Shown: positions 58,901-64,000 of the stretch, in pieces
Layout: the number at the start of each line of letters is the position of its first letter
Numbering within the stretch: the stretch's first letter is position 1
The notes under the pieces: model-generated
Database searches by the model: none
Told to the model about the DNA's origin: nothing
The model's input: only the letters and a program-made list of their open reading frames with translations
Made by a program: the position numbers and the translations under genes
NCBI RefSeq assembly: GCF_050920415.1
Contig: NZ_CP169309.1
DNA from: Escherichia coli
Lineage (GTDB): Bacteria; Pseudomonadota; Gammaproteobacteria; Enterobacterales; Enterobacteriaceae
Direction: 5' to 3' (one strand)
Length of the DNA: 64,000 nt

Positions 58901-59196
58901 CACCGACGTATTTTGCTTTTGCGAAAGGTGCCGGGCTGATGGGCGAGGCCGGGCCTGAAGCTATCATGCCACTGACACGGGCAGCGGACGGCTCTCTTGG
59001 GGTCAGGGCCATTGGCAATGTGAATGGTGGCGGTGGATTTGTTTATTCTCCCGTGTATCACATTAGCATTCAGAATCAAGGGAGCAATGGCGAGATAGAT
59101 ACGCGCTCAGCCAGGGGACTGGTGGATCTGATCGACAGCAGGGTTGTGTCAATTATGCAGTCATCGCGTCGGGATGGAGGATTATACAGTGCCTGA
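55996..59196 (+). CDS. Tail tape measure protein
   Basis: 1066 aa, alpha-helical, Ala/Gln-rich repeats; conserved position. Confidence 0.9.
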   Translation: MATLRELIIKISANSRSFQSEISRASRMGQDYYRTMQNGGRQSAAASREMRRALAEVTDQINTAKSSALNMAGAFAGAFATGHLISLADEWNSVNARLKQASQSTDDFQVSQRELMAISQRTGTAFSDNASLFARSAASMREYGYSSEEVLKVTEAISTGLKLSGASAAEASSVITQFSQALAQGVLRGEEFNSVNENGDRVIRALAAGMGVARKDLKAMADNGKLTADKVVPALISQLGALRDEYAAMPDTVSSSATKVENAFMAWVGGANEASGVTKTLSGVLNGIAGNIDTVATAAGALVAVGVARYFGNMASSAGSATAGLITAARNEVALAEAQLRGTQIATARARAAVYRAQQAVAATRGTERQAAAEAKLAAAQASLTRNIAARTAAQTTLNTVTSVGSRLLSGALGLVGGVPGLVMLGATAWYTMYQNQEQARESARQYAATIDEIRQKTSAMSLPEASDNEEKTRQALEEQNRLINEQEGKIRGLKNQIADYQRWLDESSQSGSGAEIILKGLAEATNQLAVEQSRLTQMQGKAQSIQDVLAGLEERRVALIRQQAAEQNKAYQSLLIMNGKHTEFNRLLGLGNELLQQRQGLVNVPLRLPQATLDDKQQTALNNSKRELALSRLKGEARERARLGYAADDLGFVGEAYRTARQNYINNSLDAWRNNQANKPKAHKKTEAEKTEDIYKRLIKQQKEQIALAGQNTELAKMKYQVSQGELSTLSEAQKKTLLQNAALIDQKKIREQLAAYESSLADSNASARASDDAQLLGYGEGSRMRERLQEMWSIRHEFEQKNNELLRQYQAGEIEEALWKQEKELNKKYLEERLSDQQDYYAKADALRNNWNAGLQEGLTNWADSATDYASQAADAVVSTMDGLVSNISDALAGNVVEWRNWGSSVLREVSKILMNAAIVNGLKSLSGAGGWLGTVGGWISGAVANAKGGVYTSANLSAYSNTIVDTPTYFAFAKGAGLMGEAGPEAIMPLTRAADGSLGVRAIGNVNGGGGFVYSPVYHISIQNQGSNGEIDTRSARGLVDLIDSRVVSIMQSSRRDGGLYSA

Positions 59197-59530
59197 GCCT
59201 GAAGTTTTTAACTGGATCCCCCGTGAGGGGATGGAGACGACACGAAAGCCATCAGTTATTACGGTAAAGTTTGGTGACGGATATGAACAGCGACGGGCTG
59301 GTGGGCTGAATGCGGATCTGAAAACGTTTAAACCGGTATTTCGTGTCACAGATGAATACTCCCGTGCCGCGCTGGACAGTTTTTTATCCCGTCATGCCGG
59401 GATTCGTGCTTTTTTGTGGCGCCCGCCAAAACACAACAGGACTGTCCGGGTTGTCTGCAGGGAGTGGAGCATTTCGGATAATGCCATGTATACCGATTTT
59501 AACTGTACCTTTGAAGAGGTCACTCACTGA
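59174..59530 (+). CDS. Minor tail protein M (lambda gpM-like)
   Basis: ...ITVKFGDGYEQRRAGGLNADLKTF...FLWRPP... similar to lambda M; alternative GTG start at 59189. Confidence 0.8.
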   Translation: MEDYTVPEPEVFNWIPREGMETTRKPSVITVKFGDGYEQRRAGGLNADLKTFKPVFRVTDEYSRAALDSFLSRHAGIRAFLWRPPKHNRTVRVVCREWSISDNAMYTDFNCTFEEVTH

Positions 59531-60228
59531 TGCAGGATATACAGCAGGAAACACTCAATGAGTGCACTAAAACGGAGCAATCCGCGCTGGTCGTGCTCTG
59601 GGAAATTGATCTGACAGAGGTCGGCGGAGATCGTTACTTTTTCTGCAATGAGCAGAACGAAAAAGGTGAACCAGTCACCTGGCAGGGGCGGCAGTATCAG
59701 GCCTATCCCATTCAGGGAAGTGGATTTGAGATGAACGGCAAAGGAGCCAGTGCAAGGCCAACGCTGAAAGTCTCTAATCTGCACGGCATGGTCACCGGGA
59801 TGGCGGAAGACCTGCAGAGTCTGGTCGGCGGAACGGTGGTCCGGCGTAAGGTTTACGCCCGTTTTCTGGATGCGGTGAACTTCGTCAACGGAAACAGTGA
59901 CGCCGATCCGGAGCAGGAGGTGATCAGCCGCTGGCGCATCGAGCAGTGCAGCGAACTGAGCGCGGTGAGTGCCTCCTTTGTACTGTCCACGCCGACGGAA
60001 ACGGATGGCGCTGTTTTTCCGGGACGTATCATGCTGGCCAACACCTGCACCTGGACCTATCGCGGTGATGAGTGCGGTTATCACGGTCCGGCAGTCGCGG
60101 ATGAATATGACCAGCTGACGTCCGATACCACGAAAGATAAATGCAGCAAATGCCTGAGTGGCTGTAAGTTTCGCAATAACGTCGGCAACTTTGGCGGCTT
60201 CCTTTCCATTAACAAACTTTCGCAGTAA
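59530..60228 (+). CDS. Minor tail protein L (lambda gpL-like)
   Basis: 232 aa, MQDIQQETLNECT...CSKCLSGCKFRNNVGNFGGFLSINKLSQ, near-identical to lambda L as recalled. Confidence 0.9.
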   Translation: MQDIQQETLNECTKTEQSALVVLWEIDLTEVGGDRYFFCNEQNEKGEPVTWQGRQYQAYPIQGSGFEMNGKGASARPTLKVSNLHGMVTGMAEDLQSLVGGTVVRRKVYARFLDAVNFVNGNSDADPEQEVISRWRIEQCSELSAVSASFVLSTPTETDGAVFPGRIMLANTCTWTYRGDECGYHGPAVADEYDQLTSDTTKDKCSKCLSGCKFRNNVGNFGGFLSINKLSQ

Positions 60229-61521: not shown

Positions 61522-61581
61522 TGCAAAATGTTTTATGTGAAACCGCCTGCGGGCGGTTTTATCGTTTATGGAGCGTGAGGA

Positions 61582-64000
61582 ATGGGTAAAGGCAGCAGTA
61601 AGGGGCATACCCCGCGCGAAGCGAAGGACAACCTGAAGTCCACGCAGCTGCTGAGTGTGATCGATGCCATCAGCGAAGGGCCGGTTGAAGGTCCGGTGGA
61701 TGGATTAAAAAGCGTGCTGCTGAACAGTACACCTGTGCTGGACAGAGAGGGGAATACCAATATCTCCGGCGTCACGGTGGTGTTCCGGGCCGGTGAGCAG
61801 GAGCAGACACCGCCGGAGGGGTTTGAATCCTCCGGCTCCGAGACGGTGCTGGGTACGGAAGTGAAATATGACACGCCGATCACCCGCACCATTACGTCTG
61901 CAAACATCGACCGTCTGCGCTTTACCTTCGGTGTACAGGCACTGGTGGAAACCACCTCAAAGGGTGACAGGAATCCGTCGGAAGTCCGCCTGCTGGTTCA
62001 GATACAACGTAACGGTGGCTGGGTGACGGAAAAAGACATCACCATTAAGGGCAAAACCACCTCGCAGTATCTGGCCTCGGTGGTGGTGGGTAACCTGCCG
62101 CCGCGCCCGTTCAACATCCGGATGCGCAGGATGACGCCGGACAGCACCACAGACCAGCTGCAGAACAAAACGCTCTGGTCGTCATACACTGAAATTATCG
62201 ATGTGAAACAGTGCTACCCGAACACGGCACTGGTCGGCGTGCAGGTGGACTCGGAGCAGTTCGGCAGCCAGCAGGTGAGCCGTAATTATCATCTGCGCGG
62301 GCGTATTCTGCAGGTGCCGTCGAACTATAACCCGCAGACGCGGCAATACAGCGGTATCTGGGACGGGACGTTTAAACCGGCATACAGCAACAATATGGCA
62401 TGGTGTCTGTGGGATATGCTGACCCATCCGCGCTACGGCATGGGGAAACGTCTTGGTGCGGCGGATGTGGACAAATGGGCGCTGTATGTCATCGGCCAGT
62501 ACTGCGACCAGTCGGTGCCGGACGGCTTTGGCGGCACGGAGCCGCGCATCACCTGTAATGCGTACCTGACCACACAGCGCAAGGCGTGGGATGTGCTCAG
62601 TGATTTCTGCTCGGCGATGCGCTGTATGCCGGTATGGAACGGGCAGACGCTGACGTTCGTGCAGGACCGACCATCAGATAAGGTGTGGACCTATAACCGC
62701 AGTAATGTGGTGATGCCGGATGATGGCGCGCCGTTCCGCTACAGCTTCAGCGCCCTGAAGGACCGCCATAATGCCGTTGAGGTGAACTGGATTGACCCGA
62801 ACAACGGCTGGGAGACGGCGACAGAGCTTGTTGAAGATACGCAGGCCATTGCCCGTTACGGTCGTAATGTTACGAAGATGGATGCCTTTGGCTGTACCAG
62901 CCGGGGGCAGGCACACCGCGCCGGGCTGTGGCTGATTAAAACGGAGCTGCTGGAGACGCAGACCGTGGATTTCAGCGTGGGTGCCGAAGGGCTTCGCCAT
63001 GTGCCGGGTGATGTTATTGAAATCTGCGATGATGACTATGCCGGTATCCGCACCGGCGGGCGCGTGCTGGCTGTGAACAGCCAGACCCGGACGCTGACGC
63101 TCGACCGTGAAATCACGCTGCCATCCTCCGGTACCACGCTGATAAGCCTGGTTGACGGAAGTGGCAATCCGGTCAGCGTGGAGGTCCAGTCCGTCACCGA
63201 CGGCGTGAAGGTAAAAGTGAGCCGTGTTCCTGACGGCGTTGCCGGATACAGCGTATGGGGGCTGAAGCTGCCGACGCTGCGCCAGCGCCTGTTCCGCTGC
63301 GTGAGTATCCGTGAGAACGATGACGGCACGTATGCCATCACCGCCGTGCAGCATGTACCGGAAAAAGAGGCCATCGTGGATAACGGGGCGCACTTTGACG
63401 GCGACCAGAGCGGCACGGTGAATGGTGTCACGCCGCCAGCGGTGCAGCACCTGACTGCCGAAGTCACCGCAGACAGCGGGGAATATCAGGTGCTGGCGCG
63501 CTGGGACACGCCGAAGGTGGTGAAGGGCGTGAGCTTCCTGCTCCGTCTGACCGTAACAGCGGATGACGGCAGTGAGCGGCTGGTCAGCACGGCCCGGACG
63601 ACGGAAACCACATACCGCTTCAGGCAGCTGACGCTGGGGCGTTACAGGCTGACAGTCCGGGCGGTAAATGCGTGGGGGCAGCAGGGCGATCCGGCATCGG
63701 TATCGTTCCGGATTGCCGCACCGGCAGCGCCGTCGCGGATTGAGCTGACACCGGGGTATTTTCAGATAACGGCGGTCCCGAAACTGGCTGTATATGACCC
63801 GACGGTGCAGTTTGATTTCTGGTTCTCGGAAAAACGGATTGCGGATATCAGGCAGGTTGAAACCACAGCCCGCTATCTTGGCACGGCGCTGTACTGGATA
63901 GCTGCCAGTATCAATATCAGGCCGGGCCATGATTATTATTTTTACGTTCGCAGTGTGAACACCGTTGGCAAATCGGCATTCGTGGAGGCTGTTGGTCAGC
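61582..64000 (+). CDS. Central tail fibre / host specificity protein J (lambda gpJ-like), 3' end beyond the window
   Basis: Hand-translated open frame from the ATG at 61582 ([41 protein letters not shown]...) to the window end; absent from the ORF track because no stop is reached. Confidence 0.88.

Follow-up and report, generated by a model that had tools for sequence, protein, structure and literature searches.

Sequence comparisons point to a mosaic virion operon in a lambdoid prophage of Escherichia coli, with a lambda-type L-K-I-J cassette beside non-lambda head and tail-shaft genes

Lambdoid phages are pervasively mosaic (Juhala et al., 2000, cited in PMC9836094), and their head and tail genes form separate transfer modules (PMC9836094). 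HNH endonuclease genes beside cos and the terminase genes are common among phages and prophages (PMC3592412). In phage lambda (NC_001416; 8IYK, 8IYL and 8XCG), J forms the initiator or hub of the tail together with I, L and K, and M caps it as the platform for the tape measure and the tube; the C-terminus of the tape measure touches the gpI plug, and binding of the receptor by the tip of J triggers opening of the hub (established knowledge and structures in PMC11101478). gpL bears a 4Fe-4S domain, and gpJ binds the receptor with its C-terminal Ig-like domain; J of lambda is the classic binder of LamB (PMC11101478). When lambda gpJ receives the C-terminal part of natural gpJ variants by fusion, the receptor switches from LamB to OmpC, and two such proteins, gpJ 1A2 and A8, use OmpC to deliver DNA into a strain deleted for lamB (Brodel et al., Nature 2024, PMC11338833). 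We compared with these systems the tail tip genes M, L, K, I and J, and the virion genes upstream of them, of a prophage in a 64,000-nucleotide (nt) stretch of the E. coli chromosome (contig NZ_CP169309.1 of assembly GCF_050920415.1; hereafter the window), for which a first-pass annotation made from the sequence alone had proposed a lambda-like tail tip joined to a non-lambda head and tail shaft.

With high confidence, the region is the distal portion of the virion operon in a lambdoid prophage that appears intact and is integrated beside yecE; it is mosaic, and its J receptor domain is most probably of the OmpC type. Protein identities were determined by blastp with lambda and HK97 (NC_002167) as references, and DNA was compared by blastn and in 100-nt blocks. 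On these comparisons, the virion module is a mosaic in which at least six segments differ in their nearest relatives, and the sharpest joint lies at the boundary between M and L (Table 1).

M, L, K, I and J lie on the + strand in the lambda order, directly after the tape measure gene; each product matches the expected Pfam family, and the overlapping stop and start codons of M and L are shared with lambda. L (93.1% identity), K (93.0% across the 199 residues of lambda K), I (79.4%) and J (97.4% over residues 1–806) are of lambda type. By contrast, M is 40.4% identical to lambda M and 39.5% identical to HK97 M, and a close relationship to lambda thus does not extend to every component of the tail tip. 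HK97 offers no nearer match, its M, L, K, I and J being 34–39% identical to the window proteins. The first-pass annotation had called all five proteins very close to lambda, which is borne out for L, K, I and the N-terminal part of J but not for M. It had also called L and K nearly identical to their lambda counterparts, which overstates the likeness; L carries 16 substitutions in 232 residues, with all eight cysteines of lambda L, and hence the positions for the 4Fe-4S cluster, retained. The blastn high-scoring segment pair with lambda opens at window position 59510 (lambda 13409), 20 nt ahead of the L start codon, and no lambda DNA homology was observed 5' of 59510. Nucleotide identity is 92% over positions 59510–63997, with most 100-nt blocks 95–100% identical. 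Within this segment, an internal patch of I, at about 61000–61300, has been replaced (43–58% nucleotide identity to lambda, with a 24-nt deletion).

The K open reading frame of the window encodes 247 amino acids (aa), including a complete JAB/MPN domain, whereas K of the lambda reference is annotated as 199 aa, and its frame is open only from lambda position 14258. The DNA 5' of lambda K that is annotated as intergenic (14127–14276) is 91–97% identical to the 5' coding region of the window K and contains single-base insertions and deletions, suggesting that K of the lambda reference is N-terminally truncated relative to the window allele.

Upstream of M, the tail shaft and neck are related to HK97, with DNA homology spanning positions 52995–59034. 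The proteins corresponding to HK97 gp7, gp10, gp11, gp12 and gp13 are 51–78% identical to their HK97 counterparts (head closure 65%, gp10-like protein 78.5%, tail terminator 51%, major tail protein 71%, chaperone 64%). The tape measure protein is 55.6% identical to HK97 gp16 over its full length, and only 26% identical to the C-terminal third of lambda H. Compared with lambda V and H, the major tail and tape measure proteins are unrelated or only distantly related, in agreement with the first-pass annotation. A slippery heptamer, A AAA AAG, is present at positions 55235–55241, directly 5' of the G stop codon, and a −1 shift at this heptamer reads into the T open reading frame (MRFLMMLALRMG...); programmed G-T frameshifting is thus conserved. 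The slot of the HK97 gp15 moron, between T and the tape measure gene, is occupied here by a small moron. Its product carries a lipoprotein-like signal (MRKSVVTLACLFFISAC), had no match in a Pfam search, and is encoded in a low-GC block at 54–56 kb (GC 0.454); it could be a surface or exclusion lipoprotein.

The head genes have yet another nearest relative. A tblastn search with the capsid protein (97% identity), followed by gene-by-gene comparison, identified the Stx2e phage phiP27 (AJ298298), whose HNH, portal, protease and capsid proteins are 91–100% identical to those of the window. The portal-protease-capsid block is 93% identical to phiP27 in nucleotide sequence over positions 49279–52631; at the protein level, identity is 73% for the 60-aa membrane protein, 94% for the portal, 100% for the protease and 97% for the capsid. 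A separate stretch of phiP27 homology (83%) spans positions 46558–46974, that is, the HNH gene, and ends at phiP27 position 21809, within the annotated 10-bp cos site of that phage (21806–21815). Since the terminase genes beyond this point are of another type than those of phiP27, a mosaic joint coincides with cos. The terminase large subunit (TerL) is 38% identical to that of phiP27 and 29% identical to that of HK97, and blastp of the small subunit (TerS) against phiP27, HK97 and lambda gave no match. Likewise, the head-tail adaptor is 42% identical to phiP27 L41 and has no match to HK97 gp6. The same head type is joined to an HK97-like tube here and to a contractile tail, with a sheath gene, in phiP27.

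The first-pass annotation had assigned the head to the HK97 type with an HNH endonuclease, an assignment that stands for Pfam families and module layout but not for HK97 itself. HK97 and the window share the HNH gene by cos, TerS, TerL, portal, S78 protease and an N-terminally extended PF05065 capsid protein; the Pfam match of the capsid begins at residue 114, behind a coiled-coil-like N-terminus, and Pfam matches and gene order indicate a module lacking a separate scaffold or decoration gene. However, identities to the HK97 head proteins are 26–35% (TerL 29%, portal 32%, protease 35%, capsid 26%). The nearest solved structure to the capsid (51374–52597) by sequence is the capsid of the Rhodobacter capsulatus gene transfer agent (6tb9; E = 6e-73), not that of HK97. 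Likeness to HK97 is found in the neck, shaft, tape measure, moron slot and head-module architecture. The modular recombination proposed by the first-pass annotation is supported, with a clean joint at the M/L boundary and several more joints upstream.

The arrangement is not peculiar to the window. It is present as one colinear piece, M/L joint included, in the phage records vB_EcoS-640R1 (ON470612) and PhiR49_2 (PV340570) at ~95% identity, and these phages, the prophages of UTAK-5 and E21845/O/A, and others share the terminase-to-J arrangement at 95–99% nucleotide identity. Relatives of the ON470612/PV340570/UTAK-5 type differ mainly by J alleles that are recombinant and dense in single-nucleotide polymorphisms, and by the content of the early region. 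Of 5426 complete E. coli genomes, 214 contain at least 80% of a 20-kb query (window positions 44000–64000), with identities reaching 99.2%. A public collection lists the exact tape-measure protein in 507 blocks, and a look-up with this protein gave eight relatives of 98.2–99.5% identity, none identical to the window in J. Over positions 45996–61529 (15.5 kb), the window is matched at 100% identity by a contig of GCA_965252195 (L010), and all 82 differences between the two lie from the I-J spacer (61530) onward. The near-clonal strain MFDS1022581, to which the first 24 kb of the window are 100% identical, has its own prophage at this yecE site (NZ_CP169399, 2104001–2154000), with the same integrase-to-replication region as the window; the late region of that prophage is wholly of lambda type (nu1-A-W-B-C-D-E...V-G-T-H-M-L-K-I-J), and the prophage has an IS66 insertion. 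Comparison of these two strains is a direct example of late-operon exchange.

The part of J that determines the receptor lies beyond the end of the window, where the gene is cut at codon 806. Identity to lambda drops over the final ~230 nt before this cut, to 81%, 91% and 70% in successive blocks. In all eight relatives that share the exact tape measure protein, the ~150 C-terminal residues of J are ~43% identical to lambda and ~90% identical to gpJ 1A2. An exact search of IMG/VR with the last 76 nt of the window gave 19 loci, 17 of them with a usable continuation and none identical to the window upstream. All 17 continuations encode a J of 1159–1165 aa, in which residues 807 to ~1009 are 93–100% identical to the L010 type and ~57% identical to lambda; the receptor domain is 36–43% identical to that of lambda, and none is lambda-like. 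Ten of these domains are 1A2-like (the L010 type), three are A8-like (~96%, 96.5%) and four belong to a third type. The distal fibre and receptor domain of J are thus of a non-lambda type in all relatives recovered, and a LamB-type receptor domain was found in none of these 8 and 17 sequences. 1A2 and A8 are laboratory fusions to lambda gpJ, and it is their natural C-terminal parts that are ~90% and ~96% identical to the receptor domains of the relatives; the likeness is to domains in the relatives, not to the J of the window itself. The third type of receptor domain (L015, L018, L023 and L026 in IMG/VR; last 150 aa, …GTWGNTETPNGTVTVTISDDHNFDRQIIIPP…) is ~37% identical to the domain of lambda and ~40% identical to the 1A2 type, and we found no experimentally assigned receptor for it. 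A literature search on the source of the PhiR and vB_Eco records gave no receptor data.

These observations suggest that the virion module was assembled through repeated recombination at or near gene boundaries. Its main pieces number four. One comprises the phiP27-type cos/HNH segment and the portal-protease-capsid block, and another the terminase and adaptor genes, which are close to none of the three reference phages. The HK97-like neck, tail tube, chaperones and tape measure form the third, with the divergent M as a co-traveller, and the fourth is the lambda-type L-K-I-J cassette, which begins 20 nt ahead of the L start codon. In the particle, M, L, K, I and J would build the tail tip complex, the base on which tape measure and tube polymerise, with J as hub and central fibre, and the receptor would be set by the last ~150 residues of J. 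Because the exact combination is widely distributed and has spread very recently, we infer that the HK97-like tape measure and the 40%-identity M cooperate with the lambda-type L, K, I and J.

E. coli genomes hold near-identical lambdoid L-K-I-J genes at a median of five places each, a situation that can mislead assemblers, and the M/L joint could in principle be an artefact fusing two prophages of one genome. This can be set aside with near certainty, since the identical joint is found in many independent assemblies: the two phage records, in each of which it lies on one colinear piece, eight independent NCBI assemblies including closed chromosomes, and 214 complete genomes. A real joint might still belong to a decayed, non-inducible prophage, in which the mosaic would have no present function. 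Defective prophages are frequent in E. coli, the relative in UTAK-5 has side tail fibre pseudogenes and an inserted IS66, and the window stops within J, with the distal tail genes and attR beyond it. However, all genes from the integrase to the J N-terminus are intact, as is the G-T frameshift signal, and the 15.5 kb of complete identity with another genome argues for recent spread; we therefore consider decay unlikely.

Adsorption through LamB, as expected of a tail tip that is lambda-like throughout, had been predicted by the first-pass annotation from the lambda-like J. The prediction draws on the 97.4% identity of J residues 1–806 to the classical LamB binder (PMC11101478), but the receptor domain is the C-terminal Ig-like domain (PMC11101478), which the window does not reach; the final 230 nt already show a lower identity to lambda, and every relative and continuation that reaches the domain carries a non-lambda version, mostly 1A2- or A8-like. 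We consider a LamB specificity very improbable. Since 1A2 and A8, which most domains of the relatives match, use OmpC, the J of the prophage most probably carries an OmpC-binding domain rather than the LamB-binding type of lambda. Several points weigh against this assignment and against an intact prophage. J is a fine-scale recombinant patchwork, in which separate 100-nt blocks are identical to different relatives, and its C-terminus lies outside the window; the type of its receptor domain is therefore estimated from the population. No exact match to the J allele of the window was present in the collections searched, the best being 98.2% identical (megablast, 5426 complete genomes). For 1A2 and A8, the sequences were taken from a supplement PDF whose machine-read text had lost bases, and the identities to them are approximate; frameshifts from character recognition confounded plain tblastn of the receptor domains against published 1A2, which was replaced by alignment with a frameshift-tolerant script. 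A functional prophage particle is suggested by the intact open reading frames, which are its only basis. A more speculative proposal, which we regard as possible but doubtful, is that the M/L boundary, which falls within the physically interlocked tail tip complex, is a recurrent, preferred exchange point at which a lambda-type L-K-I-J host-range cassette is plugged onto unrelated siphovirus tails and, separately, that the C-terminus of this J is a receptor domain of unassigned specificity, such as the third type. With a preferred exchange point of this kind, the M-L/J interface would have to be very tolerant or conserved.

Modular mosaicism of this module is already known, and the prophage is of an ordinary type that is common in E. 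coli. The module matters little beyond annotation, and serves as a clean worked example of lambdoid mosaicism. High identity to lambda over the first 800 residues of J is uninformative on the receptor, because the domain that binds it is a C-terminal cassette exchanged independently; prediction of prophage host range must use the last ~150 residues of J and the side fibres.

Table 1. Coordinates of the annotated features of the window
Feature	Position	Strand	Evidence
Host chromosome, E. coli: flhA, cheA, argS, torYZ, cmoAB, yecN, yecE	1–29000		
Integrase gene, start of lambdoid prophage	29276–30589	-	
HNH endonuclease, beside cos/terminase region	46558..46908	+	Pfam HNH, E = 1.9e-16; 91% aa identity to phiP27 L34
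Terminase small subunit (Terminase_4, P27 family) and large subunit	47057..49296	+	Pfam
60-aa membrane protein, portal, S78 prohead protease, HK97-fold major capsid protein (phiP27-type head block)	49308..52597	+	Pfam Phage_portal, Peptidase_S78, Phage_capsid
Head-tail adaptor (gp6-like), type distinct from reference phages	52642..52959	+	Pfam Phage_connect_1, phrog_40
HK97-like head closure, gp10-like protein, tail terminator, Ig-domain major tail protein, G and G-T chaperones	52968..55546	+	Pfam; HK97 identity
Small lipoprotein-like moron, between T and tape measure	55605..55946 or 55575–55946	+	phrog_2320, function unknown
Tape measure protein, HK97 type	55996..59196	+	Pfam Phage_HK97_TLTM, TMP_3, Tape_meas_lam_C
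Tail tip protein M, divergent type	59174..59530	+	Pfam Phage_min_tail; lambda gpM chain 8iyk_M, E = 5e-24
Recombination joint, onset of lambda-type DNA (final ~20 nt of M; TGATG stop/start overlap with L)	59510..59530	+	blastn, block identities, alignment
Tail tip protein L, lambda type	59530..60228	+	Pfam Phage_tail_L; 93.1% identity to lambda L
Tail tip assembly protein K (JAB/MPN and NlpC/P60), lambda type	60233..60976	+	Pfam Prok-JAB, NLPC_P60
Tail tip assembly protein I, lambda type with divergent internal patch	60874..61521	+	Pfam Lambda_tail_I; 79.4% identity to lambda I
Central tail fibre/hub protein J, first 806 codons; receptor-binding C-terminus outside window	61582..64000	+	Pfam FNIII-A_GpJ, Phage-tail_3, Ig_J, Ig_J_second

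Pfam searches of the window open reading frames placed the virion genes in a lambdoid-prophage gene set in canonical order. Between 29276 and 46515, the integrase gene is followed by genes for a CI-like repressor, Ash and Rha regulators, DnaC-like and DnaB-like replication proteins, a Q antiterminator, a P21-type holin, lysozyme and Rz; from 46558 onward, the late operon takes up the rest of the window. Each gene, from that of the integrase through the N-terminus of J, is an intact open reading frame with full-length family matches.

Long open reading frames on the - strand of the virion module (59524–60342, 60248–60676 and 62674–63930) had no Pfam match and overlap strongly conserved + strand genes, and for these reasons are taken to be non-coding. 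The opposite strand also encodes, at 42476–43663 between the Q antiterminator and lysis genes, a 395-aa DUF4236 protein (phrog_17982, function unknown); its gene sits in a low-GC island (GC 0.41) and looks like a moron.

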